DNA of 64,000 bases from Flectonema sp. DT1601 (taxonomy: Eukaryota). The DNA lies in contig OZ025790.1 in the NCBI GenBank assembly GCA_964019425.1, positions 620,001 through 684,000 of the forward strand, written 5' to 3'. This document shows, piece after piece, positions 23,463-64,000 of the stretch (positions are counted from its first letter, which is position 1; each line of letters begins with the position of its first letter). Under the pieces are notes generated by a model. That model was not told where the DNA came from, did not search any database, and saw nothing but the letters and a program-made list of their open reading frames with translations. The translations under genes and the position numbers were made by a program.

Positions 23463-24605
23463 CTAAGTTAATCCCTTTACTTTGGAGTAAAGGAAATCAA
23501 CTTTGTCACGATGAGCTATTCTCTCACATCCATCCATAAAATATGGACCAACAGACTTAACATCACAAAGTCCAGATAGGTTAACGCTGACAGACGTGCA
23601 ACCACAGAGAAAAAACCTTCCAACTGACTGGACGCTACTGAAGGATGACAAGTCCAACGACTCAACACCAGTGCAACCACAGAGAAAGTAATCATTTATA
23701 TTTGTGATATTCTTAAGACTAGACAAGTCCATTGAAGTGACAGACGTACATCCGCTTATAAAGTTTTTACTTATGGACTTCAGACCCTCAAGGTCGGGTA
23801 AAATAAGATTCTCAACAGAACCACAACCAGAAATGAAATAACTTCCAATCGACGAGATCTTCTCCAAAGGTGACAAGTCTAGCTCGACAATAGAAACACA
23901 ATTACAAAGAAAGTAGTTTCCAATGGATGTGACGTTCCTTAAACCTGAAAGATTCAACGTCGATAAAGAATAACAATTCTCAACAAACGAATCCCCAACA
24001 ACAGTGACGCTACTGAAGACTGACAGATTTAGTGAAATGAGTGATTTCTGTTTGTATAAAAATGAATTTCCTATTTCAGTAATAAACTTAAGACCCGTCA
24101 AATCCAACTCTGACGCTATCGACAATGATAAGAACGCATCAGAAACTGAAGTAATTGAGGTGCTGGGGTTACAAAATTCTATTTTGTGAAGAGTCTGCCA
24201 ATCAGAAATAACAACACAACCCTCCACCGCAAACGACGGAGTATCAAAACGGAATACTCTTTCAGGATTTGTGTGAAATAGATTAAGAACTTTAAGTCTT
24301 TTATTTACATCAGTAAACCATTCCCTATCAAATAACTTCATCATACTAACAACAACTTGTGACTCAGACTCCACACCCAACGATAGTAACGTAGCTGATG
24401 ATGAAAGGACTTCTCCCGCAAATGAGATTTCAATAAAATCGACGTCAATATTCCACTCATCAGCTGCTGCCTGAGCTGCATCCTTCACAGTAGAGGTAGT
24501 GGTCATTATAAAAAGTATATCAGAAAATCCAAACTCAGAACATGTCATAAATAAATTCATATTCGTTGTGGCTGACTTTGATAAAATGAAAAGAGAAGTA
24601 AACAA
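23463..24605 (-). CDS. Ubiquitin-like domain + BspA-like LRR protein (true start probably MNLF near 24561)
   Basis: Ubl-like N-terminus (STVKDAAQAAADEW...IEISFAGEVLSSSATLLSLGV) and repeats LDLSxLxxVTSIGxYFLxGC. Confidence 0.75.
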   Translation of the reverse strand: MFTSLFILSKSATTNMNLFMTCSEFGFSDILFIMTTTSTVKDAAQAAADEWNIDVDFIEISFAGEVLSSSATLLSLGVESESQVVVSMMKLFDREWFTDVNKRLKVLNLFHTNPERVFRFDTPSFAVEGCVVISDWQTLHKIEFCNPSTSITSVSDAFLSLSIASELDLTGLKFITEIGNSFLYKQKSLISLNLSVFSSVTVVGDSFVENCYSLSTLNLSGLRNVTSIGNYFLCNCVSIVELDLSPLEKISSIGSYFISGCGSVENLILPDLEGLKSISKNFISGCTSVTSMDLSSLKNITNINDYFLCGCTGVESLDLSSFSSVQSVGRFFLCGCTSVSVNLSGLCDVKSVGPYFMDGCERIAHRDKVDFLYSKVKGLT

Positions 24606-24667
24606 ATCAAACCAACCAAGAGTTGTAAAGGAACATCAATAAGAGTTTCACTAACTTTGTGTAATAT

Positions 24668-26407
24668 TTAACACTTCTTTCGAATATCAGGTTTGTGAAC
24701 GCTGCTACCTTTTGTTTTCTTAGCGATTCGAAGAATGCTATAAATCTCCTTGTCAGAGGCAACTGATAAAGGAGTTTTATACGATTTATCCCTGACTTCA
24801 GGATCAGCATCGTGTTTAAGCAGATGTAATATAATGTCCTTCTTACCCATGGCGGATGCGTAAAGTATTGGAGTTCTGCCATCGATGTCGCAGATGTTTG
24901 GATTAGCTCCAACAGATGTCAACATCTCAATTATTTTTAATGAACCGGATCGACAAGCAGCAGATAGCGGAGTGCTTCCACGATCATCTTCGGTGTTAAT
25001 TAAATCATTAAAATCCGAAAACGACATCATTTCTTCCAAACACTCTTCAGTTTCCTTCGAAGGGTTTCCCTCACAGAGAACGTGAAGAGCTGTCTTTCCG
25101 AAATTGTTTTGAATTTTATAATCACATTTGTGTTTTAATAGTGGTCGTAAGAAATGAAACCTCGCTGTCTTACATGCGATATGAAAGGCGGTGTTTCCTT
25201 CTTTAGTAACACAATTAATATTAGGTTGGTATTGTAGTATTGTATTAAACATTAACAGGTCTTCTTTATCACAAGATTCGTGAAGTATTGTTTTTCCATT
25301 TTTGTCTGAGAGATTGACGTCAGCATTAGCTTCCAGTAAGAGTCTCATGACTTCCATTTGATTTCCTTCTGCAGCTGAGATTAGAGGAAACCTTCCTGAG
25401 CAATCTTTTATATTCACAGCAGCTTTGTGAGATAATAATAATTTTACTACTTCTACTCTTCCCCAACTACTGGCGACATTTAATGGTGTCCTTCTAGAAC
25501 GATCCCTTTCATCAACATGACTGTAGGATAGTAAACAAGATACAATATCAAACAGTCCTCTTGCACAAGCAGTTGTTAATGGAATATGACCATTCTTGCA
25601 TTGAATTGTTGGATCAGCTTTGTGTTTCAGTAGATGTGATGCGACTTCTGAATGACCACAAAGACAAGCCACTGCGAGTGGAGTGAAGCTGATTTCATCC
25701 TCAGCATTCAAATCACACTTTGCAGCAACAAGAAGTTCAACAATTTCCAAATGTCCTCCATGAGCTGCTGCATGAAGAGGAGTTCGATAAGTAACAGAAT
25801 CTTTATATTGAGAAATCGTATTATGACATCTCAGTAGTTCTTCAACACAACGAGTGTGTCCTTGAGAAGAGGCTGCTAATAATCCCTTTCCGAGATCTAT
25901 TTCTAATTGATCTCCTTGAGATGATTTATAGCACGCAATCAGATCATTTAAAACATTAATATTCCCATTGTTGCATGCTACTTGAATGGCCAGCGTACCC
26001 GCAGGTTCGATTCCCGCATCGTTGTATATTCCTACTAGGTTTCCCCCATTTCGTACTTCGTTTAGTAGGTTTTCAATAGTGGCATTTTCATCACCCAGTC
26101 TCTCGAGGGCTGATCTTTTCTTTGATCTGATCATTTCCATCTCATCGTGAGATGCAATTCCGAGTTCCATTACTTTTGTGTCTTTACTTAGTATGTTTCC
26201 TTCATAGACAAGATCGAAGTCATCAGGACAAGTTTCTGTTTCTTCAGCAACTTTCTCTTTGAGGTCAGTAATTGAATCCCTCACATCAACAGGTACGTTG
26301 TATTGATTATCAGTAACACTTTTAACTACCAAATACATCACTTTGAGGACTGTGGAGAATATGTTTATGTGAATGGTTGCTGACGAAGGTATGGTTGTGA
26401 ATAACAA
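24668..26407 (-). CDS. Ubiquitin-like domain + ankyrin-repeat protein (true start probably MYLVVKS near 26338)
   Basis: Ubl fold (SITDLKEKVAEE...LVYEGNILSKDTKVMELGI) followed by many TPLHxAxxxG ankyrin repeats. Confidence 0.85.
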   Translation of the reverse strand: MLFTTIPSSATIHINIFSTVLKVMYLVVKSVTDNQYNVPVDVRDSITDLKEKVAEETETCPDDFDLVYEGNILSKDTKVMELGIASHDEMEMIRSKKRSALERLGDENATIENLLNEVRNGGNLVGIYNDAGIEPAGTLAIQVACNNGNINVLNDLIACYKSSQGDQLEIDLGKGLLAASSQGHTRCVEELLRCHNTISQYKDSVTYRTPLHAAAHGGHLEIVELLVAAKCDLNAEDEISFTPLAVACLCGHSEVASHLLKHKADPTIQCKNGHIPLTTACARGLFDIVSCLLSYSHVDERDRSRRTPLNVASSWGRVEVVKLLLSHKAAVNIKDCSGRFPLISAAEGNQMEVMRLLLEANADVNLSDKNGKTILHESCDKEDLLMFNTILQYQPNINCVTKEGNTAFHIACKTARFHFLRPLLKHKCDYKIQNNFGKTALHVLCEGNPSKETEECLEEMMSFSDFNDLINTEDDRGSTPLSAACRSGSLKIIEMLTSVGANPNICDIDGRTPILYASAMGKKDIILHLLKHDADPEVRDKSYKTPLSVASDKEIYSILRIAKKTKGSSVHKPDIRKKC

Positions 26408-26480
26408 CCTAAAAATAATAACTTACAAAAAAAAAAAAAAAAAAGGTGTGTTGTGTAAATGTGACTGAAGTAAAACAGAT

Positions 26481-29300: not shown

Positions 29301-31721
<2,421 letters not shown>

Positions 31722-32345
31722 TTAAATTTTCTTTCTTTCGACCACAAACATGAAAACATTCAACTCAACACAAAATACACAAGGATCACGACTGTCACGC
31801 GGATAAAGAACATGCGGCACCGTGGTGCAGCAATGAATGTAACCAAAAAAGCTTGAGAGGGAATCAAAAATAACCTTTTGCCGAAGAATGCCTAAGGCAA
31901 TCAAATCAACTCAGAGATGGAACAAGGATAATGAAATCACCCTTGGCGTTGTTTTTCGTGTCTGCACCACAAAACATTTTGCTACAAATGTATTATAACT
32001 ACGTATATCGTAATATTGCAGCGGATGTTGGGATAGCATGTATATAATGGAACAATAATAAATAAATAGATAAAAAAAGACTTTCCAAGAATATCAAATA
32101 GAATAAGACAACTTCAAATCCAAGTTGATAGAATTAGGGAGAGGAAGGACACGCTACTAACTCCGAATGTGTTTCTTAAAGCTTTCTGGTTCTGAGGGCC
32201 TTCAGAGCCTTGGCAACTTGCTCGCTGCTGCACTCGTTCTCAAAGAAGGTTCCCTGAGCGTCCTGCTCGCACTGGCCAACTGGCTGGGTGCTGCTGGTGG
32301 CGAATCCACTGCAGGTGGTGGAGGTCAGGTAGTCCTTCATCACCA

Positions 32346-33341
32346 GTTCAGAAAGCATTCCTCGACGTCGTTCCCGATGATCCGCAGCATCGAGTCGGTG
32401 TTCTTCGCTACACATGCCTTCTCCCAATCCCGGTTCGAATCCTTCAAGATCTTCAGGGCGAGCTTCACATCCGGACGTAGGTGCTCCGTGTCGAATTGCC
32501 TGGGTTTCGGCATATGTTGCGTTTTCCCGTCGTATGCCTTCAGTCGTAGGTGGTTGACCATCACCGGTTTATGTGTCGGGATGCCGGTGTCGCTTAGAGT
32601 CTGGGTCCTAGACTCCGCTGTTATGGCCGCCGCAGCCGTGTTGTTCAACAGGACGGCGTCGATTCTTCTTAAACCCAGTCCGCCCGTGCAGGTCGGTTCG
32701 GCGCTGTTCATCGCTACCGCGCAATCGGTCCAAAGTCCTTGGCTCGTCGCTAGTTGAATGCAAGCGGATTCGCGGGTGTCCATGTTGAAATCACCACCGA
32801 TCAACACTGGCACATCCCCCAGCGCTGCCGCTTCCCGGAGAGTCAATTTCAGGAGTTCTTCCGTGTTCGCTTCTGATCGTACATCTCCGTAGAACGAAAT
32901 TGCATGTAGAACCTTGCCTTTTCCGTATGCTACGCCAGCGTGTACGTATCTTCCGGAGTCTTCGAGTACCTTCGGTCCTCTGATCCTTCTAATCGGAGCG
33001 TTGTGTTTCGCGAGGACCGCTACTCCACCCGTGGTCTTGTAAGACCGTTCGTCGATTCTTCTCCTTTCGGAGGGTTTGCTGAAGACCGCCGACCAGCCCT
33101 CTCGTTCGAGTTGTTTGAGCATCTTCTTCTGTTCTGTTTCAGAAAGAAGTGTCTCTTGCACTAGGATGATGTCGGCGTCCAGCGCTATCACCGCTGCGAC
33201 GTTTTTCATCATCGTCGTGGTATTCACCGTTGCCACCGAGAATTCCGAAGGGAGTCTCATTGTTGCGTTGTCGTCCCCAATCCGTCCTGTGTCGGTCCAG
33301 CCGCTTCCTCTTCTTTCTGTGTTGTGGAGGTTCCGAGTCAT
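32346..33341 (-). pseudogene. ORF2 N-terminal part: apurinic-like (APE/EEP) endonuclease, truncated before the RT
   Basis: Probable start MTRNLHN at 33341; EEP motifs as listed for copy B; fuses to the cathepsin tail at 32345/32346. Confidence 0.85.
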
Positions 33342-34812
33342 TGCGATTTCTCCAGAACTGCCGCCAGCAGTAGTTCCAACCTCTCCATTCTCGCTTCCAG
33401 TGAGGATCCGGTTGTGTTTGTGCTTGAGGTGGTTTCGGTGGTGTGTTCGGTGTATCCGATCTTCCAGCGTCCCTCCAGAGCTTCGATCCCTTCTTCTTCC
33501 CATGGAACTTCAGGAAGTCGGTCTTGCAGTATCGCTTCCCGTTGTTCTCCGTCGGATCTTTTCGCGTTTCGGGTGGTGTTGCTACAACGCGTTTCACACC
33601 ATTTTGTTGGGTCACCTTCGTTGTTGGCTTCTGTCCCACTTTCTCAACAAGGCAGAGCTTCCCTCCCACCGCGACGGTGTCGGTCTCCCTCTCGGGGCCC
33701 CTCACAATCATCCAGCGGGTACCGTCTCTCACTCCTTCCCAGGTCTTCCTGACGTCCCATCCCTCCTCAGCTATCAGCTGTTTGACTGCCTCATCGGCAG
33801 TCATCCCCAGCGGTATGCCGCTAACCTTCGCTTCTGGCATTTTCGCTGGGATGCCCAGCTTCCTCCTGAGGTGTTCTCTCCGGATCTCCTCACCCTCATT
33901 CCCAGGCCGTCTTTGTTCTGCACCAGTCCGATGCAGTTCGGGTCCTCCTCGGCTTTCACCAGAGCATCGTCCAGTTTTTCTTCGCCCGGGAGCCAGATGA
34001 TAGCTCTGTTTTCGTTCCTGGATTTCTCCATCACGAAAACCCCGGCTTTTCCGGATGTCCGAAGGAAGGCCTCCACTTCTTCCTCTCTAACCCTTACTAC
34101 GGCCGAAGCTTCTTCTGGGTTTATCCTGGGTAAATACCCGTCCACGAAACCCTTCATTTCCCTCAGGCAGGTTGTGACCCTCTTCGGGTTTCGCTGGAAT
34201 CGTTTCCAGTCCTCCGCCGAGCATCTCTTCTTGGTCGCCCTCACGACCAATTCGGTCGTGGGAGCGACGCCTCCCGATCCAGCAATGCCCTTCATCTGGG
34301 CCTCCTTTCCTAGATCCGTGACTTCCTACGATGTCGACGTGTTTCGAGAATTCGAGGGTCACTCCGTTCATCTCTATTTTGTGTCCGTTCTCTTCCCGGT
34401 TGGAGAACCAGTTGCATTTGTGAGGTGCCAGCTGTTGTCCCGTCACTGTGCAGTATTCGGCTACGATGTCGACACCCTTCTGTAGGTCTTCTCTGGCTCC
34501 CACCAGCGTCAGATCGTAGAGATGGGTCTTCCTCTGAGGAGGATTCGGATCCTCCCTTCGCCCTTTTTTTGGTAGAAGGTGAGGGCTTTGGCCCGTCTCC
34601 GTTGAGAGCGTGTGCTCTCCGGTTCCGTTCCTTGCGCGGTGTTGCTGGGTCTCCGTTGGGGACCTTCCATCCTTCTCGCCTGGCGGGGTCCGGCGGTTTG
34701 TTGGTGTTTGGTGGTGTTGACGGTGCTGGTGGTGCTGTCGGTGCCTCTGCATCTTTCGGTCTATCGTTTCCGGTGTCCAGGAGCGCCCCGAGGAGGCAAA
34801 TGCACAGCTCCC
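33338..34812 (-). pseudogene. ORF1 (gag-like) of the retrotransposon, broken by a 206-nt insertion and two apparent 1-nt frameshifts
   Basis: Reconstructed: ...AEAPTAPP...EEDPSL|GKEAQMKG...FLRTSGKAGVFV...GLGMRVRR/LRRKLGIPAKMPEAKVSGIP...QPDP/SLEARMERLELLLAAVLEKSQ*. Its TGA overlaps the ORF2 ATG (ATGA, 33338-33341). Confidence 0.65.
34748..34812 (-). ncRNA. HDV-like self-cleaving ribozyme at the 5' end of retrotransposon B
   Basis: GGGAGC(P1) TG TGCATTT(P2) GCC(P3) TCCTCGG(L3) GGC(P3') GCTCCT(P1', G1-U wobble) GG(P1.1) ACACCGGAAACGATAGA(weak P4) CCGAA(J4/2, catalytic C) AGATGCA(P2'). Confidence 0.85.
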
Positions 34813-34831
34813 TTAACCCTCCATTGCAACC
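34813..34831 (-). repeat. Third copy of the cathepsin target site (GGTTGCAATGGAGGGTTAA) between elements A and B
   Basis: 18/19 identical to the TSD at 30101/31013; the difference is a synonymous GGC/GGT change. Confidence 0.9.
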
Positions 34832-37073
34832 TGATATGTTTAGTTTTGAGTGCCGTCACCCAGTCTGTACAAAGACAGCCCTGTCGGATGATGCGACACT
34901 TTTCCGACCTATCTAGGTCAGGCCCTTACCCTCCCGTCTCCCCTCGACGTCTCCCGTCTTTTCCTTGGTGAAACCAAGGCCCAGCAGGGTTCCCTGTCCC
35001 TTCACTTCCTTCTTCGTCTTCCGTTTAGGAGCAGGTTTCGGTGGCAGTTGTCCGTGGTGTTTGTGTGAGCAGCACCAGGATGCCAGTCGGTGCGACCGGT
35101 TCGCGTTGCGACCGCAGCTTAGACAGATCGGTCTGTCGTGTTGTTTGCACCTGTGATGGTGCTTCCCGCAGCAGGTGTCGGCTGTCTTCCTCTGCGAGTA
35201 GCAACTCCCGCATGCCGTCATCCTGTGCTTCGTACAGAAGTCCCAGGGGGGTCAGTCCGTCTGATTCGTCATTTCGTGGTGGTTGTAGCAGCATTCGTAG
35301 ATTGCCACTTCCACCGCGTTGTCGCATGTCGCGCACTTCCCCTTGCGGTGAAGTTTGCATACCGGTGGTGGCTTTTTTCCTAGTGGCGGTGGTCTCTTCG
35401 TTGCTTCCTCCGGGGCCACAACTGAGTCCTCTTGTTCGCGCATCACCGTCCATCTCGCATCCCATTCAGGTGAGGGTTCCTCGGAAGCAGTCTTCCTCCA
35501 AATGTCAGCTTTCTTTTCCCATCCCGGCGGGTGTTCGATGAACGTGTTGCTGCCGAAAGGTTGTTCGGGGTACAGGTCTTTCTTCTCGTGTGCGTCCGAG
35601 ATCAGGTCTTCTACCTTCCGGGCAGATTCTTCACCTCCGAGGAACGTCGATCTCCTGTCGATTCCCGCAATTCTCGGTCCGTCCAGCGGTCGTAGAGATT
35701 TGATCACTTCCTTGATGTTGCCATCGGGGTAGATTCTCTTGTCCGGTCCGTCCATTTCCTTCGCGATCCTGTCTATCTTCACCAGTAGGTTGGCGAAGGT
35801 TCTCGATTTCTTGTCCATTGAAATCGGGTGGGTGCTTTCGGTGTGGCTGGTGGTGGCTTCTTTCAATCTGATTCCCGTGCAGATCTCGAAGTCCACCGCC
35901 ATTTCCAGGAAGGTTATCCCGTTTCCGTCCTTCCTTGCCGCCCACTTGATCCTGTTCAAGTAGCTTGCAATCGCGAGGTATGTTTCTCTCGTATTGCATC
36001 CCGGCCAGGCTCGGTAGTTAGGCATGTATCGGGCCAGGTTGTTGGGGTACGAGATCATCTCTTCGGAGCTCCAGTCGCCGGCGTATTTCAGTGTGGTGGT
36101 CGGTCGTGCCGTCCGATCGCAACGTCTTCTGTCTCTCTCGAGTCTGATTCGCGCCAACATCAGTTGCATCCTCCCAGTGATTCCGTCCGGAAGTTCCATT
36201 TCCAGGGGTTTTATCCCGCAGAGTCTGAGACATGGTGGCCAGGATTCTGAGTAAACATGCATTACGTCAGGAAATTCAGAACGGATTTCGTCGTATGATG
36301 TGCATATCCAGAAGTTGTGGTCAAGGGATTCCACCTTTTCCTCACCATCCTCCGTACAGTTCTTGCACGTCTTGTCCCCACCTCCGGCATTCTCATTGGT
36401 GAAGATGTCGTCCATCATAATGCTCCTGACAACCCCTCTTTCCAACGGCAGTCCCAACTTCAGCAGTTGTAGGGTTTCTCCTCTGTCGATACCGTTTTCG
36501 ATTCCTTTCAGGTTCACTCTCTGTTTAGTGACCTTCTTCCACTCGATCAGCCTGCAGCTTTCACGGATCTCGTGCTGCCAGGCTCCCAGTTCCAGATCGT
36601 TCATGTTGAAGGTCTTCGTCGGTGTTTTGATTTCCAACGGTGATTCCCAGCTCCATCCCATTCTCCGTAGTGATTCCATCACCAATCCGATAGGGCCTCT
36701 CGTTCGGGTGGATTCTTTCGCCTTCCTCCATGTATCGATTATTCTTTCTCGGAATTTGTCGAGCATCCGTACGAACATCGATAGCCTGTTGTAGGTTATA
36801 TAGGTGTCCGGGTTTACGCAGTGTCCCTTGCACAGTAGTGATAATCCTATCGTGTTCGATAGTTTACTTCCTTTTACCTTCCTATTGAAGATCGCTGCTG
36901 CCATCGTGCTTTTCAGCTGACCCAGTCGTTTCTGATCTGGTTGGTACAGCTCTATGCCGAACAGGGCGCTCGTCATGACAGCTGCGGTCGCGATCATTGC
37001 TCTCTTGTAATACTTCAGGGGTAGCAGTTTGATCCTTCTCGCTCTCTCGAGAAGTTCCTTCGTGATCCTCCAC
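34832..37073 (-). mobile_element. Non-LTR retrotransposon copy A: 5'-truncated 3' half (post-RT region, CCHC knuckle, Cys/His repeats, 81-nt 3' UTR)
   Basis: ORF 35252-37075 contains ERARRIKLLPL, SALFGIE and CKNC...ESLDHNFWIC. It continues in the same frame past one TGA (35252-35254) to TAG at 34913, and ends ...CAAAACTAAACATATCA at the target site. Confidence 0.85.
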
Positions 37074-37352
37074 ACATCTTGGCTGGGCCAGCCTTGGTAG
37101 GAACGTTCAGGCTGTGGTACACTTTGAACTCATCAGCGCTCAGGTCAGAGTAAACGTTCATTCCGAAGCTCGCTCCAGGGTTTGAAGCCTCCAGCTCAGC
37201 TCCCTTCATCATGTTGTTCTTGAAGATCGATCTTCTCTTCACTTCGTCAGATCCGGAGTACTGCTTTCCGTAGGTCTCCTTGTAGTTGCTCCACAACAGA
37301 CCCTCGTTCTCCTCAACGTAGCTGAGGGGAAGGGCCGAGGTGGCCGCGGCCA

Positions 37353-37435
37353 TGGCGAGCATTCTCTCGTATTGCATCCCGGCCAGGCTCGGTAGTTAGG
37401 TATGTATCGGGCCAGGTTGTTGGAGTGGCGAGCAT
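37353..37435. repeat. 63-bp copy of retrotransposon ORF2 sequence inserted in the cathepsin copy 2 signal peptide with a 10-bp duplication
   Basis: 37363-37425 matches 35985-36047 (61/63); flanked by TGGCGAGCAT at 37353-37362 and 37426-37435. Confidence 0.9.
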
Positions 37436-47819: not shown

Positions 47820-49267
47820 TTAAACAGCCATCTGCATCTTGATAGTTGGAAAAGGAGCGTAGTCAAGAACAGCAAAATCTTCCATACAATAGTCTTCAAC
47901 CTTGTCATGGTGATTAATAATCTTAACTACTGGGAATGGACGTGGATTTCTCTCAAGCTGAGTTTGAAGTGGTTCCACGTGATTTGAGTACACATGAGCA
48001 TCACCTAAAGTATGAATAAAATCACCCGGCTTAAGACCACATATATCAGCCAATATAATTGTTAATAACGAGTACGAAGCGATATTAAAAGGTACTCCAA
48101 GACCCATGTCACATGATCGCTGGTACATTTGACATGAAAGCTCTCCATTTGCAACATAAAATTGAGATAAGATGTGACAAGGAGGTAAAGCCATCTCTGG
48201 CATAGCTGTTGGGTTCCAAGCAGACATGATGATTCTTCTATCGTTTGGATTGTTTTTAATCTTGTCGATTACTTCAGCTAGTTGATCAATACCCTTACCA
48301 GAGTAGTCATCGTGACAGGTTCCATATTCGGCCCCAAAATGTCTCCATTGAAATCCGTAGATGGGTCCGAGGTCTCCTACTTCTCTGTTGTGAAGACCTC
48401 TGCCGTCGAGGAATTCACGAGTTCCGTTGTCATCCCAGATACCTACTCCCTTGGCTTTGAGAGTTTTACCGTTAGTTTCTCCTTTTATAAACCAAAATAA
48501 TTCCTCAGCAACACCAGTCCAGAAAACCCTTTTTGTTGTCAATAACGGAAATCTACCATCGCGGAGTGAAAATCTCATCTGAGCACCAAAACGAGAGATG
48601 GTACCGACACCAGTTCTGTCACCTTTCTTGACACCATTCAAAATGATGTCTTCAACGAGATCGAGGTATTGTTGTTCTTCTTTGTTAGAACGGGAATACT
48701 TCTCAAATGAGTAAGTGAAGTCACCTTCTGTTTGGTCATCAGATTTTGATATTTGTTGGTATCCTTTTGGAGTTCCTTCGAAATCGATGCTCACATCACA
48801 TCCGTGATCACCTTTTACACGTGTGATAAAAACATGATGAAGGGGAAGTTTTTTATTTTCCAACGCATTCTTGTAGATCGACGCACCTCCGATAACAAAA
48901 ACACGATCAATAGAATCAAGGTAAGGTGACTCTGTTAATAATGATAAAGCCTTTTCTAAGTCACCATTCACAACTAAAACATCATCTCCAGCAACATCTT
49001 CCATCGTCGTTGATAAGACGACATTTAACCTTCCTGGGAGTGGTCTGAATTTTGACGGGATAGATTCCCAGGTCTTTCTTCCCATTATAACTGCGTTCTT
49101 CTTGTTTGCTTCTGCTGCTTTGGTGCTGCTGGACTTGGTCGTTATTTCTTTGAAATATTTCAGGTCCCCAGGTATTCTCCATGGAAGGTCACCGTCTTTT
49201 CCAATCCCTCCTTTTTCATCGGAGGCTACAATGATTGAGAATGGTCTCATCACGTTATGAAAACTCA

Positions 49268-49268
<1 letters not shown>
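47820..49268 (-). CDS. DHFR-TS: Bifunctional dihydrofolate reductase-thymidylate synthase
   Basis: DHFR motifs GIGKDGDLPW, VIMGRKTWESIP, RPLPGRLNVVLS and VFVIGG; TS motifs DRTGVGT, LPPCH and YQRSCDMGLGVPFNIASY. Confidence 0.98.
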
Positions 49269-49300
<32 letters not shown>

Positions 49301-50919
49301 ATAATATTCTGTGAAGGGAAAAATAATATAAAAATGGAGTTAAAAATTAAAAAACAACGCAATGAGTGTTGACGAATCACGCTATCAATCTATAAATGAA
49401 GTTTTTTTTTTTTCTTTCTCAAAAATAAGTTTGTAAAACCAGTGAGTGTGATTTTTTTTTTTTTTTTTTTCCCCTGTTTGTTAGCAGAGCTTCTGAGAAC
49501 GCAGAAAATAGAAGAGCGCTTTAAAGAAAAAATATCACCACTCAGTATGAGCTCTCTGTGTTATATTCATAATCCGAAGTACGTTACTTTTATTAAGCAT
49601 TATTTCACTTATAAACTACCCAAGACTACATCAGCACTTTTGGACGCAGCTAAGAGACTTGTCAAAAAAAAAGATAACCAGAAAACAACCTGAAGAGGGC
49701 AGCAAAAAAAAAAAGAGGACGGAAAAAAAAATGAATAGCACAAAATAATAACAAAAATTTCGGGTTATGGTCAAAATGCCTGGATGTGGAAAGCTATGCG
49801 GAGTTTCCAAAAAAAAAAAAAAAAAAAAAGCTGGTCAAACCTGATAGCCATATTAAAAAACCTCTCAGGAGGTGGAAGCCAAGGAGGAATTGAAGTATGT
49901 TCCACAAAACAAGTTGTTTTCAAACCATCGATTTCGATCACCTCCACGTCTATTGAACAGAAGACATCGTTTTATCCGGAAATTCGGGGACCACATGAAA
50001 TGGGGTGGCACGAAAAAAAGGAAAAATAAAAAAACTTGGTTTGGTTCCCTCTGTTACTCAAAGGGTCAATCAGAAGGTAATCTGTTACTTTTTTCCTGCG
50101 ACACATTCCAATCAGAATAAAAAAAACTTTAATTTCAAAAAAAAAAAAATTAAAAAAAAAATTGTGGGACTCTTTTTTATGCAAAAAGTGCACCACCTGC
50201 TTAAATGGTGTGGAAGGGTATTTTCCTTTTTCCTTTTTTTCTTCTTTTTTTTCTCCAATTCTAATTCTGTTAATTTCAATCGATATTAAAAAAAAATAAA
50301 TAAATAAATAAGATCTCAACGGCCGTTTTCGTCGTCAGAAATGTAAATCTCAAAACAAGAAATGTGAAAAATAATACAACCCAATTATCTTCAGTATCTA
50401 ACTCACTTAGACAGTTAAACCCAAAGTAAAAGGTTTAATCGCGCGTACCTCACAATAAAATCTAATTGGTGGATCACATAAACAAGTCGTAGAGAAGTTT
50501 AGAATCCTGGCCCTGGGTGGCTGATTATCTCATACAGAGTATCAATTACTTTTTAAATACTCCGATCTAACTACAGTCACATGAGTAATCATCTCTCCGT
50601 ATGAATTCTTAGAAATGTAAATAAACAAATCAAATTTATGTGTTGAGTCGGTAGAATTAGTTTTTTTTTTTTTTTTTTCACATCTAAAATTTTCATTTTC
50701 AATAAAAATGCTCTAACTTCGCACACAAAAAAATAATATCTCGAGGGGAGGGAGGGAAATGGACTAGTGGTCTAATTTTGTTGAAAAAGGAAAAAAAAAA
50801 AAAACTTTAGTACCTGAAAATAATAAGTTAAACTAAAACAAAGAATAATGTTTCTGCCTTGCACACCAACAAAAGGGTTCTAAGCAGCAGTTAATCAGTA
50901 GCCTACATTCTTAATTCAT

Positions 50920-56797: not shown

Positions 56798-59700
56798 TTA
56801 ATCTTTCTTCGTGAGACCGAAGACACCATCCCAGTATTGGTTCTTAACTTCTGGAAGTGGTGATCTTGGGCGATCAAATCCTCCCTGAGTTAGGGTACCG
56901 TACGCTGTTGAAAACAAAACGCCGTGAGCTCTGTTCTCCAACTGTGTTCTTGAACTATCTTCGTTGTAGAAGTTTGTGTAGAATTCACTCTCAACAGTCG
57001 AAACGTTATCCTTGTGTGTGTCTACGAACCCAACATCACTTCCTTCACCACCAATGATTTCATTCCTATCAGCTGTGTGGTCATCCCGACTGATATCAAT
57101 CATTCGATCCCAACAATCGACATCAAATAATTTATATGTCGAACTCTTTAAGTCAACGTAATTGTTATCAACTAGTTGTCCATCTCTTTGAAGAATTGAT
57201 AAAACGATTCCTGTGAGTTGTTGAAATTATTAATTCCAATTAATGAAAAAAATGGAATTCGAAAAAGGATCCTAACCTACCAAACAAAGACATACCTGCG
57301 TTATTGTTAACCAGAACATCAGCACCATTGCCTCCATTGATAATGTCACAAAGAGGTCCACTCTTTGGTTCATCGTGATTGAAGCTGTCGGAACTCTCGT
57401 GATTTTCTCTACTGTGGTGAGAGTAACGTTTTTTGCGTTCATTCCAATCGTGATCATCATCGTCATGATGGTGTTCGTCGTCATGGCGATGCCACCAGCT
57501 GGTGTACTCATGGTGGTGACCTGTTTTTAATTTATTTCAAAACTCAACACGGATACAAAACTATTTGTTAAAAATAACATCTCACATCAGTTCCTTTTTC
57601 AACCTCTCCCCACCCTTCCACCCTCCCTCTTGTGATTGGATTACTTCACACAAAAAGTTAATAAAAACATACCCTTATCATTGTACAAAACAAGGTTGCT
57701 GTATGGGTGTAGACCCTCGTCTCTGCCCTTCAACAACCCAAGCTTCTTCGCCGGGTTGAGTGCACGTTCCTTGATAGTGTCTTGAATATTAGTCATGTAC
57801 ATATCTTGGACTACATCAATGTGTTGGAAGTCGTGTTCTGTAGTTGGGTCAGCATGTGCTCCCGCAAAAGTATTGACGAACAAGATTCCGTAGTCTCCGA
57901 TCACCACGTCGTCTCCGGCGTTTCCATTAAGCTCGTCGGATCCCCACTTCGTAAGCGGAAGGGCGTTCCATCTCTCGTTCGAACGATGTCCAAGCTCGTG
58001 GATGGCAAGAGCGTGTGAAGGAGAAAACACGTCAACGTGGCGCTTGAACTTGTACTCCAAGTCGTTGAACAGCTGAGTGAAGGTGTGCTTGTCGTGGTTG
58101 TCACTCGGGTAGTAGTGGTCAAATTGATCATTGTGGTCATCTTGGTTAGCGTCGTCGTGGTGGTCGCTGTTTGGATCGTGATCCCTGTACTCAACCCACA
58201 CCCATCTCCAACCGTTCCAGTGGTAGTGTCCTGTGTGTTCGTGTTGCCAATCTCCGTGGTGATCGTGTGCAGGAGGATTCTTTGTCAGGGTCTTCGAAAC
58301 TAACACCAAACCATCACCAACCAGAACATCGTTTCCGTTGTTTCCGCGTATCACATCATTCGACATCGAGAGCTCCACCGCAGGTGCGGCAACCCCGACA
58401 TCGCTGTTAGCAACCAACGCCTCAACAATCGCGTGGTGGGCTTCGAATACTGCGTGTGCAGCGTCCGCCGCCAACACCGAGTAGTCGTACAAGACGTGCA
58501 TCATACCCTTCACAACGATTTCCAAGTCATCCTCAACAATTTCATCGTGGAAGATTACGTCTACGAACGACTGCATGTTGTCTCCAACCAGCAAATCGTT
58601 TCCATTTCCTCCGTTTACCACATCGTTTCCGATCACTACCTCCGCTGGAAGCGCGTATGTTCCTTGGTCCGACTCGTAGGTACGCAAGTCAGTAGTCGCT
58701 CGGAGGAGGCGGTTTTGCAACTCAATCCAGCGCGCACCAGCTGAGTCGTGAATGCAGTCCAAAGCACCGATTCTTAGGTTCATCATCGCATGGTGTGTCG
58801 CACTGTCTCCAACCACGATGTCGTTTCCGTCACCCCCGTTCAACACGTCGTTTCCGTACAACGCCCTCTGGTTACGCACCGCGTCTGGGATCATCGACAC
58901 GTATCCCCTCATCGTGTGTGACTGGTCGTCCGTGCGCCTCACATCTGCTACCCCGACTGCCTCGTGCAGTTTCTCCAACGCAGTCGGCAACACGGTAGCC
59001 ATTGCCGCCCCCTCGATGATTTGCATAGCCGCCGCACGGTTCGAAGACTCCGGCTTCAACGCGATTCCAACGTGCATCACCGTTCCGAATTCATCGACTT
59101 CCAGAGGAGGCGAGTTCGCCGCACTGTCCTCCACCGACAGCACTCGAATCACGTTCGACACCAGAGGCATGTCGGAGTCGTAGTGGTACACCGAAGACAC
59201 ATCGTCTCCGTACAGCAAGTCGTTTCCTCCCTCTCCCGACAGCACGTCGTCTCCACGCTGTCCGAACAGATAGTCGTCGCCGTCTCCACCGTTCAGCGTG
59301 TCGTGGCCGGCAGGCTTCAACCTCATGCCCGCAATCGCCGTCTCCCACTCACCGCTTGGAGCCGTCGCCTTCACCTTCTGCGATTCGAATGCGCCCATCG
59401 ACACCAGCAGCTCGTTCCTGAAGAAGGTTGCGGCTTCGTCAGCTGTGAACGTGCTACTCTCCCACGTTGGCAGCCATCCGGTCACCGTCACCGGCTCTTC
59501 GAGAACAACGTCACGGTGCCAGGCACCTGTCCTTTCGTTCAAACGCGGGCTTCCGCCGCTCCTCAACGATCGCACCACGTGCCCGACATCTCCGATCAGC
59601 ACGTCCCGTCCTTCCCCGCCGTGCAGAACGTCGTCCCCGAGTTCACCGAACAGCTCGTCGTCTCCCTCCTGTCCGTGCAACGTGTCGTCTCCACGCTGAC

Positions 59701-62700
59701 CGTGCAAGATGTCATTACCTGCTCCACCATCGATGCTGTCATTCCCAGACACCTCGTCGACGTCATCGAACCTCTGGATAGTCCGCACCACGTCTGCGAA
59801 CATTGCCGATCCAGGGTACCGCTCCCACACCTTCTCGTGGTCGAATGGAGCTCCGTTCTCCATCGTTAACACAGTCCTGCTGATTACACCGTTGTCACCC
59901 AGCACCACGTCTGATCCCTCTTCTCCGAAGATCGTGTCGTCGCTGTCCACTCCTCCCAGCACGTTGTGCCCCCCAGTGATGTCATCGTCGCCGTCCCCAC
60001 CGTTGATCGTGTCCTTTCCTTGCTGTCCCATCAGGAAGTCATCCCCCTCCCCTCCGTTAATCGTGTCGTCTCCGGCACCGACATCCGACGACGTGAACAA
60101 CGACAAGTACGTCGACCCACCACCCTCGAAGGCTGCGTGGTCACCCATCACCACATCCGAACCGGCGTTCCCGTTGAGCACGTCGTTTCCGGTTCCTCCG
60201 AATACGTAGTCGTCACCTGACCCTCCGTTGATCACATCCGACGCACCAGCCAGTGGATCGATCGTTTCCGCGGACACCACCTTCAGTGTCGCTGCATTCA
60301 CCTTTGCGACAACCTGATCTCCCCACAACATATCCTGGCCATCCTCTCCGTCCAACGTGTCAGATCCTTGTTGCCCCGCCAAAAGATCATTACCAGCGCC
60401 TCCCTTTAAGTGATCCGCTCCACCATTCACGTCGTCTCCTGTCGACACCGATGTAAAGGTGAGCAGCTCGGTGGACCTTTCGAAGACCGCGAAGTCACCG
60501 AACGCGACGTCGTGACCTGCTTCTCCCTCCAACACGTCGTCACCTTTTCCTCCGAACATCACGTCGTTGTCATCGCCACCGAACATCGTGTCCGCACCAC
60601 CGGTCCCCTGCGACATTGGTTCCGCATGCGATACCAGTCCGGTGTTTCCCTGCTGCGTCTCGATCGACATGTGGTCTCCGAACATCCAGTCGTCTCCGGG
60701 GTTCCCCTTCAAGTTGTCTCCCCCGTTCCCGCCGACGATCACATCGCTGCCGGCCCCACCGGAAACCTCGTCCGCGCCTCCTCCGTACTGGTCCTCTGTA
60801 AACACCGATTCCAACGTCACGCTGCCATCCGCCACAGCGGTGCCCCACCTCAGCTCCAAGTAGTCACCGAACAACACGTCGTTACCGACACCGCCTGCCA
60901 ACTCGTCGTCTCCAGCCCCTCCGACCAGCACGTCCGCGCCGTCGTCTCCGTGAAGCTCATCTCCGCCACCCATCCCTGGATCTGTGGACACCGCGTGCAC
61001 GTTGTTTCCATCGTGTGGAATTGTTATCTCTGCGAAGTCACCAAAGATCCAATCATCTCCTGCGTTTCCGTGCATGACGTCCGCCGCTGCACCACCAAAG
61101 AGAACGTCGTCGCCTTCATCACCGTTCAGGGTGTCCGCTCCTCCGGCCTGGTCATCTCCCGGGAACGCTGTTTTCATAGTCACATCTCCCTCCTTCGACT
61201 TGGTGTACTCTGCGTGGTCTCCGAACACGAAGTCCCTTCCGGAATTTCCGCTTACTTCATCCGCAGCCGCACCACCGATGACCACGTCGTCCCCCTCGTT
61301 TCCAGAAATCGTATCCCCTCCCCCGAGGGTCGCCTCCGTCGATTTCATCGTCACTCCCCCATCGACGATGTCCACCGAACCATGGTCCCCGAGGATCTTG
61401 TCGTCACCCGCACCACCAACGATGTCGTCTCCGCCTGCCCCTCCGAAGATGATGTCATCTCCATCCGATCCGGCAACCGTGTCGGCATCTCCGTTGCTTC
61501 CAGGGGTCTTGAAGACCGTGCGCATGTGGCGGTCTTCCGGACTTGTGTACGACCGCTTGATCTCTCCGCAGTCTCCGAACACCACATCATTACCTTCCCC
61601 ACCGTCGATGACGTCCCTGTCCGCACCTCCGAACACGGAATCGTCACCGGCTCCAGCGACAATCGTGTCGTTTCCACCGCTCACCGCCTGCTCCAGACAC
61701 TTCAGCGTGTGCTCGTCCTTCTTGATCGACAACAGCACGTCTCCGTGATCCCCGAACACCACGTCGTTTCCGCTCGACGCGTCGATGTGGTCAGCACCCT
61801 GTCCACCGATGATGAAGTCATCGCCTTCGTCACCGTTCAGTTTGTCGTCTCCTCCACAACCAGACTCGGTGTGCGTCGAGTGCAACACACGCTCGTCTTT
61901 CTTTGACTCATACAGACCGTGGTCCCCGACAATCACATCTGCCCCACCGTTTCCATCGATCACATCTCCTCCAGCACCTCCGAACACGTAATCGTCTCCA
62001 GCTCCCGCCGTGATTGTATCGTCGCCACCACTACACGACCCGAGTGTGATGAGTTTCGTAAGCTCCGCGCTCGGCGTCCACGCAACCTCCCCGAGGTCTC
62101 CGAAGATGTAGTCGTTCCCGCCCTCGCCGTCGACTTCGTCGTCTCCCTCACCCGCAACTACCACGTCGTCCCCTTCGCCAGCGAAGATCTTGTCCGCCGC
62201 ACCGGCATCCGATGTCGCCGGACCTGCCGATCCCTTCACGGTGAAGTCACCTGGATTAGTCGTCTCGTATTTCCCGTAGTCTCCGATGATGACGTCCCCA
62301 CCGGCCCCTCCGTGGACCACGTCACCGCCTGCCCCAGCGAGTATCTTGTCGTCGCCTAGTCCACCGTCGATGACGTCGCTTCCCCCGCCCACCTGGTTTG
62401 CGTTGCGCAACCTCACCCAGTGTGACGATGGGTTCAAATGCACCTCTCCAGCGTCTCCGAACACGAAGTCATCTCCGTCTCCTCCATTGATGGTGTCCTC
62501 ACCACCACCTCCCAACAAGATGTCGTTCTCTTCGTCTCCGTTCAAGTGATCATCCTCCCCATCCGCCGCGTCACCAGTCGTGACGAGGTGGGTCAGCCCA
62601 GTCAGAGGCGTGCGAGTCATGATCCCGATGTCACCGAATACCACGTCCAACCCAGCGTTTCCGCTGATCGAGTCCGCGCCCCGTCCTCCGAATAGGATGT

Positions 62701-64000
62701 CGTCCCCCGCGCTTCCGTGGATGGTGTCATCCCCGCTCCCGGCAGTGGCCTCGCCGTCGAAGACCGTTTGCAAAACCAAGTCACCCGGCTGTGTAAACAT
62801 CTTCCTCACGCGTCCAAAGTCACCGAAGATGAAGTCGACTCCATCCTCCCCATCGATTACATCGTTGGCCGATCCTCCGAACACGATGTCGTCTCCGCCA
62901 CCAGTCAGAATCTCGTCATTCCCGCCATCCGCCAGCGCAGGCGCAGTCGACTCGTACACCAACGAATCGGCCTCCTTCGAGATTACCACCGATCCGTGGT
63001 CTCCAAACACCGAATCGTCTCCTCCGCGCGTGCGGATGACGTCGTTGCTCTGACCCCCGAACACGTAGTCCTTCCCGTCCTGCACGTCTATTGTGTCACT
63101 TCCACCCTCCCCGCCCTCCGTGAAGATCGAGGTCATGTTGAACTCATCGCTGGCATTGCGCTGCACGAATCCGTGGTCTCCGAACACCACGTTGTTCCCG
63201 TTGCTTCCATCGATGGTGTCGTTCCCGTATCCTCCGAAGACGATGTCGTCCGCGTCTCCTGCCGAGATGGTGTCCGCTCCGCCAGACAACGGAGCCAAGG
63301 ATTCCAACGTGTAGGTCCCGTTCTCGTGGTCGCGTACGTGACCGTGGTCCCCAAAGATCCAGTCACTTCCCTCGGCAACCGTGATCACGTCGTCTCCCTG
63401 ACCTCCCATGATGATGTGCCGGCCGTACGAACCCGTGATCGTGTCAGCTCCTCCCTCGCCATCGGAATCGGTGAAAGTCGACTTCACGTAGAGTCCTCCC
63501 ACGTCGGGGTTGCTGCTGTCGTGCGTCGTCCGGTACACCTCTCCATGGTCCCCAAGCAAGATGTCTTCGCCGCTGCTACCGACCACCTCGTCGTCACCGA
63601 ACCCACCAATGATCACGTCGGTCTCCGACTCTCCGTACAGGTGGTCATTTCCTCCCGACAAGCTCGCAGTCGAACGGAGCGACCACGTGTCCGAAGTTGC
63701 TGGGTCGTCGCTGATGTCAATCTCACCCTGGTCACCGATGATGAAGTCCTTTCCGTCCCCTCCGTGCACCGTGTCCCCTCCTTGACCACCGATTATGATG
63801 TCGTCTCCCACCGATCCGCTGAGGACGTCGTCGCCCCCCTCTCCCGCGTCCCCAGTGTGCAGCGACTCGAATTTTCTCCATCCCCCAACCGCCGACCATT
63901 TGATCTGGTACCGACCATGGTCACCGAAGATCACGTCGTTGTGTTTTTCTCCCTTGATCGAATCCTTCCCAGTCCCTCCGAAAACCACGTCGTCTTCGTC
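56798..64000 (-). CDS. Giant RTX/hemolysin-type Ca-binding repeat protein (5' end beyond window); last 3 exons
   Basis: More than 2100 aa of GGxGxDxL/I nonapeptides and DxxFGDHG modules. GTATGT...ACAG introns at 57521-57672 and about 57211-57296 join in frame to ORF 56798-57103. Confidence 0.9.

Follow-up and report, generated by a model that had tools for sequence, protein, structure and literature searches.

Judged from sequence comparisons, the three Cys/His repeats that close the second open reading frame (ORF2) of a LINE from Flectonema sp. DT1601 are a conserved module that marks a diplonemid-type APE-RT LINE lineage, and they likely represent a new, unnamed module binding two zinc ions per unit. 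The LINE itself appears, from its junctions, to home to cathepsin coding sequence. What do the repeats contribute to this element? The reading that we prefer, to which we give about an even chance, makes them an accessory module, with two predicted zincs in each unit, for general gripping of RNA or DNA during target-primed reverse transcription, the endonuclease (EN) domain mostly picking the cathepsin site.

The element and its repeats in the window

The stretch of DNA that we analysed, here called the window, comprises 64,000 nucleotides of contig OZ025790.1 (positions 620,001 to 684,000; assembly GCA_964019425.1), and its features are collected in Table 1. The three repeats share one minus-strand frame, and a six-frame scan of all 64 kb finds such motifs only at these three sites. 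Because shuffling almost never yields even one motif (20,000 residue shuffles of the whole 738-aa frame gave none, and as many of its closing 178 aa gave one just once), the repeats are very unlikely to have arisen by chance. They lie well downstream of the CCHC knuckle, as had been proposed, at a distance of about 320 aa; in the intact protein P0001 the knuckle spans C1092-C1113 and the first repeat starts at 1428.

The original prediction described three tandem repeats at the ORF2 C-terminus. All three peptides are present, but an in-frame TGA at 35254-35252, which that earlier reading missed, splits repeat 1 from repeats 2 and 3 in the window copy. Is this codon recoded? A search with the C-terminus led to P0001, an intact ORF2 of 1576 aa with APE and RT domains (intact ORF2 copies measure 1576-1577 aa). 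The linker between repeats 1 and 2 has 11 codons in intact copies versus 10 in the window, where two small indels put it out of frame; the intact linker, RNDESDGLTP, is encoded in the window as well, in another frame. Shorter by one codon and out of frame, the window linker therefore belongs to a copy that is damaged or misassembled, not recoded. Both stop-codon read-through and a variant genetic code for TGA are ruled out by the ordinary linker of the intact copies and the frameshift of the window copy. A further difference is GKYHH in intact copies versus GKHHH in the window.

The region around this copy, from 32345 to 37430, is a patchwork in which two stretches of ORF2 (aa 1-330 and aa 856-1576), a piece of RT, pieces of ORF1 and exact copies of cathepsin parts are abruptly joined. 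Element and cathepsin sequences meet abruptly at 32345, 34303-34515, 37070 and 37362-37423, the last of these being a 62-bp piece of ORF2 that sits, flanked by short repeats, within the start of a cathepsin. Such joins could stem from local misassembly, from amplification chimeras or from templated repair. Because the window is locally chimeric, the tandem LINE junction may be partly an assembly artefact.

Elsewhere the window is gene-dense and eukaryotic. A bifunctional DHFR-thymidylate synthase gene, a fusion usual in euglenozoans, lies at 47820-49346 on the minus strand. On the same strand, two adjacent genes at 23463-26422 each encode an N-terminal ubiquitin-like domain, followed by LRRs in one and by ankyrin repeats in the other. 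At 57641-64000 the minus strand has a frame that stays open for over 2100 aa and is GC-rich, unlike its AT-rich surroundings; many short repeats, spaced in multiples of 9 codons, give it what may be an RTX-like look.

Table 1. Features of the LINE, its repeats and the cathepsin target, in window coordinates
Feature	Position	Strand	Remark
Cathepsin 3' half (Peptidase_C1, DUF3586 extension)	29301..30120	-	begins at target
892-bp non-coding insert in cathepsin gene	30121..31012	-	20-bp duplication at 31032-31013 and 30120-30101
Cathepsin L-like gene, 5' half (I29, Peptidase_C1)	31013..31541	-	ends at target
LINE ORF2 aa 1-330 with APE (PF03372)	32349..33341	-	abrupt join to cathepsin 3' end
LINE ORF1, incomplete	33338..34812	-	P0202 aa about 278-578 replaced by RT piece (34515-34303)
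Predicted HDV-like ribozyme, LINE 5' end	34748..34812	-	begins at first base after target
20-nt cathepsin target (GCNGGL codons)	34813..34832	-	between LINE 3' end and next LINE 5' end
LINE 3' UTR, about 80 nt	34833..34912	-	tail resembles 3' end of short element
LINE ORF2 3' part	34913..37069	-	aa 856-1576 of P0001, 97% identical
Lys/Arg-rich tail after repeat 3	to stop at 34915-34913	-	low model confidence
Cys/His repeat 3	35054..35149	-	missing in about half of relatives
Cys/His repeat 2	35153..35236	-	best conserved, H-R-[ML]-T-x-C-G-x-C
Linker between repeats 1 and 2	35237..35275	-	D-G-L motif conserved in intact copies and relatives; frameshifted here
Cys/His repeat 1	35276..35359	-	C-x2-H-x4-C-x2-C-x10-CC-x2-HH
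Conserved unnamed domain, W..ITxxELAvDFE..G	35565..36000 (approximate)	-	between CCHC knuckle and repeats
Canonical CCHC knuckle of non-LTR ORF2	36302..36367	-

What kind of element carries the repeats? P0001 begins with an APE endonuclease (PF03372, E 9e-11), followed by an RT (PF00078, E 6e-24, with YADD at 774) and by the CCHC knuckle from 1092. ORF1 precedes ORF2 both in P0202, a protein discussed with the target below, and in the window pieces, and stop and start overlap (ATGA) at about 33340. By this domain content the element is an APE-type two-ORF non-LTR retrotransposon. No Pfam match to RNase H was found in P0001, nor any real BLAST match to the RNase H of five relatives; some repeat-bearing relatives do carry RNase H. 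In structural searches with a 637-aa model, the region from thumb to CCHC knuckle aligned with R2 (9dou_A, Z 10.5, rmsd 4.9 over 206 aa), a feature the element shares with R2, and with L1 ORF2p (9hdo_A, Z 6.5, rmsd 4.3 over 122 aa). Both alignments stop just past the knuckle, where the standard non-LTR core ends; an unnamed domain follows, and then the repeats. For this upstream domain the predicted order is helix-strand-strand-helix-helix-strand-strand-helix, which suggests a winged-helix-like fold and a candidate DNA binder. An Atlas search with it returned no usable match, and the fold searches with the 637-aa model barely covered it.

At the 5' end, an HDV-like descriptor, built from the HDV consensus after the sequence had been inspected, has one match in 64 kb, and 40 shuffles of 9 kb gave none with a P2 of 7 bp or longer. 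The core of this predicted ribozyme, CCUCCUCG-GG, matches the R2 core as given in the available text of PMC5035012. An Rfam scan returned no ribozyme or other RNA family. The 892-bp element has no ribozyme match at its own 5' end.

Conservation and predicted fold of the repeats

Of the 12 members of the P0001 cluster, 8 have the three repeats together in a single ORF, and the remaining 4 are fragments that break off earlier. All three repeats are also kept in elements that are only 29-47% identical across ORF2. When a six-sequence repeat profile was run against 1.84 billion representatives (cut-off E<=0.001), 88 proteins, each standing for a cluster, were matched, 85 of them new. Two units (n=48) or three (n=35) are the rule among these 85, with a single protein each having one and four. 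Upstream LINE ORF2 parts are present in 52 of the 85; of the remaining 33, 32 have fewer than 150 aa upstream, too short to judge LINE linkage, and one, P0160, has 223 aa upstream of the repeats without a LINE link. The full eight-ligand pattern, C-x2-X-x4/5-C-x2-C-x5-21-CC-x1-4-HH, fits 199 of 220 units; of those 199, 177 have His as the second ligand (X), 11 have Cys and 11 another residue. Over 99 aligned rows, ligand conservation is 87-100% in repeats 1 and 2; it is lower in repeat 3, partly since two-unit proteins run into its columns. Some non-ligand residues are common to families as well, namely R (72%), T (70%) and G (65%) in repeat 2 and D (74%) and G (67%) in the linker. Between families, identity is 45-71% in the RT, 32-48% in the EN and 16-31% at the non-ligand residues of the repeats.

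All relatives with a named source are diplonemid: Flectonema neradi, Rhynchopus euleeides, Lacrimia lanifica and Diplonema papillatum, which points to a diplonemid host. One further EukProt match has no repeats. The repeats are present in D. papillatum families of 75, 28 and 68 members; 15 listed members of the first are spread over at least 14 contigs, a dispersal that refers to contig spread only and does not show random insertion. One P0107-family protein was found on 13 contigs. On an RT tree of 39 rows, comprising relatives and distant outgroups (L1-like and others) from which 8 short matches were excluded, repeats are found on several separate branches; the tree, which has long-branch warnings and many repeat-less rows that are fragments, is used for this point only. 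A metagenome scan returned 16 loci, none of the 16 with either the repeat or a cathepsin.

Two domain arrangements deserve mention. P0143 and P0145 are single ORFs of 1910-1991 aa that start with an OTU-like protease domain and also contain APE, RT and RNase H along with two repeats. P0147, a Lacrimia lanifica transcript, has three repeats fused to C2H2 zinc fingers, without LINE parts, and is a possible case of co-option by the host.

The available text of the D. papillatum genome paper reports about 2500 retroelement ORFs, with automatic labels only, and calls for a rigorous TE study. Orthogroup OG0000014 ('R2/R2DM/LINE-1'), in the text available, holds 1178 D. papillatum genes, together with genes of other diplonemids and of euglenids and none from T. 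brucei. From the shared automatic names we infer that these ORFs belong to the same family as the repeat-bearing relatives; no domain or target is described for them in the available text of that paper.

Could transposition do largely without the repeats, these being no more than a structural appendage? Two relatives, L005 and L006, reach their stop without any repeat yet keep the upstream unnamed domain, the number of units ranges from 1 to 4, and the window copy is itself broken in the linker, all of which would fit an appendage of this sort. The ligands and the linker, however, are near-invariant over the 88 clusters, even where RT identity falls to 45%, and the repeats are intact in 8 of the 8 P0001 cluster members that reach the repeat region. 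Dispensability is thus, in our view, highly improbable.

An AlphaFold model of the 177-aa C-terminus, built with 56 sequences, has a mean pLDDT of 83.8 and blocks of 86-95 across the repeats, so that a confident independent fold is predicted. In each unit a short helix follows CxxC and a second helix runs into CC..HH. Two zinc ions per unit are likely because the eight Cys/His ligands are conserved and His is exchanged for Cys.

The repeats had been set outside the named zinc-finger families, and the searches agree, with no match in Pfam, the PDB, Foldseek, VIA or Atlas. A Pfam scan of the 85 new proteins gave no family covering the repeats. Among six seed members (E<=10, HMMER filters) there was no zinc-module match, only DUF1137 at E 0.11 in one member; zf-C2H2 had no match in P0001, and a PDB sequence search with the repeats found none at E<=10. 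On the 177-aa model the best Foldseek E was 6.3, which is not significant, and VIA gave nothing at Z>=2, in both cases with methods in which small metal-held folds score poorly; with the repeats the best Atlas score was 0.79, below its chance level. These blank family and fold searches are no proof of a new fold. In the literature searched, with Repbase Reports and most subscription papers outside that search, we found neither the motif nor any LINE that targets cathepsin genes described.

Like B-box, LIM and double zinc ribbon domains, the repeats have eight Cys/His ligands per unit and a C-x2-H start, with which the B-box2 pattern also begins; they differ in their adjacent CC and HH pairs, their x4 spacing and their lack of a Pfam match. 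Two-zinc treble-clef-like modules such as the B-box often mediate protein contacts, and the repeats might likewise serve protein interaction or tethering, to ORF1p, a second ORF2p or a host chromatin or nuclear-import factor, with no base contact. Surface residues conserved family-wide, a basic tail after the repeats that is a possible NLS, and the B-box2 of TRIM5alpha as the only zinc-domain match in Foldseek (at a non-significant E of 9.9) would fit such a module. Yet the repeat block has a net positive charge in 87 of 91 proteins, which suits nucleic acid better, and we regard this function as quite unlikely.

Junctions at the cathepsin gene

The original prediction also tied the element to a cathepsin target, and this part stands: the 5' end, the 3' end and the 892-bp partner all join GCNGG codons, in two paralogs. 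The empty site, with 30100 joined to 31013, occurs in contigs of X1, X2 and X3, three of the four runs, and the 892-bp insert is polymorphic. In X1 and X2 the insert joins, by its 3' end, the same position of the second cathepsin paralog, where the 20-mer differs at two letters; the 20-mer between the LINE ends in the window carries the variant of this second paralog. The 3' end of the short element resembles the tail of the LINE 3' UTR, with a score reached by 4 of 1000 shuffles, and the insert is likely a SINE-like non-autonomous partner of the LINE.

For a LINE copy inside the cathepsin gene an in-frame fusion is predicted, and an ORF1 search served as the direct test. Its only match, P0202, is a protein of 913 aa (cluster of 10) on another contig, possibly from the same strain as the window. 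It consists of the cathepsin 5' half, 100% identical to that of the window, joined at GCNGGL to LINE ORF1. In the window, too, LINE ORF1 is in frame with the interrupted cathepsin (34832-34790), and an uncleaved transcript would encode a 913-aa prepro-cathepsin/ORF1 fusion. The junctions at this one site comprise the LINE 5' end in paralog 1 (P0202), the LINE 3' end on the paralog-2 20-mer, and the short element in both paralogs. At each LINE junction one copy of the duplication was seen, and the full 20-bp duplication is seen around the short element only. The P0001 family occupies at least 6 contigs; in runs X1-X4 the LINE is without coverage at 85% identity, which is not evidence of absence.

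Target choice and the role of the repeats

Do the repeats themselves read the target? They could be DNA-reading fingers that extend EN recognition to the cathepsin site, with their variable residues reading each family's target. The site-specific junctions, the tandem basic units of variable number and the fast change of the non-ligand residues, as might be seen in target-adapted fingers, are consistent with this, and the fusion with C2H2 fingers in P0147 hints at DNA binding. According to the available text of PMC1919474, the R1Bm EN alone is too loose to explain precise insertion, with an APE domain reading about 8-10 bp; because it reads only that much, an extra reader is plausible at a site with a 20-bp duplication. 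On the other side, the repeats are common to dispersed, high-copy D. papillatum families, and among R1-clade APE LINEs there is the precedent of TRAS1 and SART1, where exchanging the EN moves the insertion site (cited in PMC1919474, in the text available). The predicted short helices ending at CC..HH also depart from the beta-beta-alpha order of a finger, and the upstream domain, which is more widely kept, offers an alternative candidate DNA binder. Taken together, we hold target reading by the repeats to be tentative and somewhat unlikely. A bolder proposal, which we consider unlikely, is a new class of two-zinc DNA-reading finger that would home a diplonemid LINE to codons of the cathepsin L active-site region, with each family's two or three repeats a retargetable reader and at least one copy taken over by a C2H2 protein of the host.

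It had been proposed that the repeats could supply DNA specificity in a role like that of the R2 or TRAS domains. The first part was not borne out: because the repeats are found on several RT branches and in dispersed D. papillatum families, we take them to be lineage-wide rather than target-linked, and the precedents of the EN swap and of L1Tc speak the same way. In L1Tc, the nearest euglenozoan precedent, the C-terminal fingers are described as chaperones with a preference for RNA and an at least 16-fold better binding of single strands (PMC2805920, in the text available). The analogy with R2 is weak as well, since R2 combines one ORF with an RLE nuclease and with DNA-reading fingers at the N-terminus, whereas the diplonemid element has an APE domain, an ORF1 and C-terminal repeats. 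An R2-type element targeted by ZnF/Myb domains is ruled out, the N-terminus of P0001 being an APE domain without any N-terminal finger family.

Other known elements resemble this one in part. With R1, TRAS1, SART1 and Tx1L, as the available text of PMC1919474 describes them, it shares two ORFs, an N-terminal APE, an RT, a C-terminal zinc-finger-like domain and a fixed site with a duplication; the profile search found no such C-terminal repeats in that group. The trypanosome ingi/L1Tc elements are likewise euglenozoan APE-RT LINEs with C-terminal Cys/His modules flanked by basic stretches (PMC2805920) and a 5' HDV-like ribozyme (PMC3185411), which is only predicted in the diplonemid element, and they too have a short non-autonomous partner (RIME/NARTc) and insert repeatedly into one site in a protein-coding multigene family (the RHS hot spot; PMC7563717), all as given in the available text of these sources. 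Unlike ingi, whose features are listed in the available text of PMC12278014, P0001 lacks RNase H, and its units are of the eight-ligand CxxH-CxxC-CC-HH type in place of C2H2 fingers. The diplonemid element further differs in a separate ORF1 that overlaps ORF2, in having a CCHC knuckle and an extra domain, and in a target made of the conserved GCNGG codons of cathepsin. This likeness is one of features, and P0001, having neither RNase H nor C-terminal C2H2 fingers, departs from the ingi/L1Tc pattern in both.

How would an accessory gripping module, the reading that we prefer, fit into the life of the element? A LINE copy inside a cathepsin gene would be transcribed together with that gene, and the predicted 5' HDV-like ribozyme would release the element RNA. 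ORF2p would then nick the GCNGG codons of a further cathepsin copy, the nicks being staggered by about 20 nt, and the RNA would be copied in, giving a 20-bp duplication that restores the target and, from it, tandem copies. The 892-bp element would borrow the LINE machinery through its similar 3' tail. In this scheme the repeats, acting like a chaperone, would strengthen the hold on the RNA template or on the open target, and could sharpen specificity without defining it.

Diplonemids are among the most abundant marine protists, and to our knowledge their transposons have not been curated. This work defines a module, so far unnamed, well folded and likely zinc-binding, that is found in at least 88 sequence clusters. 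Its LINE apparently homes to coding sequence within a family of enzyme genes, and targets of this kind are absent from the list of known targets in the text available to us. EN, upstream domain and repeats could be swapped between families, by which the question of how an APE endonuclease that reads about 10 bp inserts precisely becomes testable, and this question bears on tools for retrotransposon-based gene insertion.
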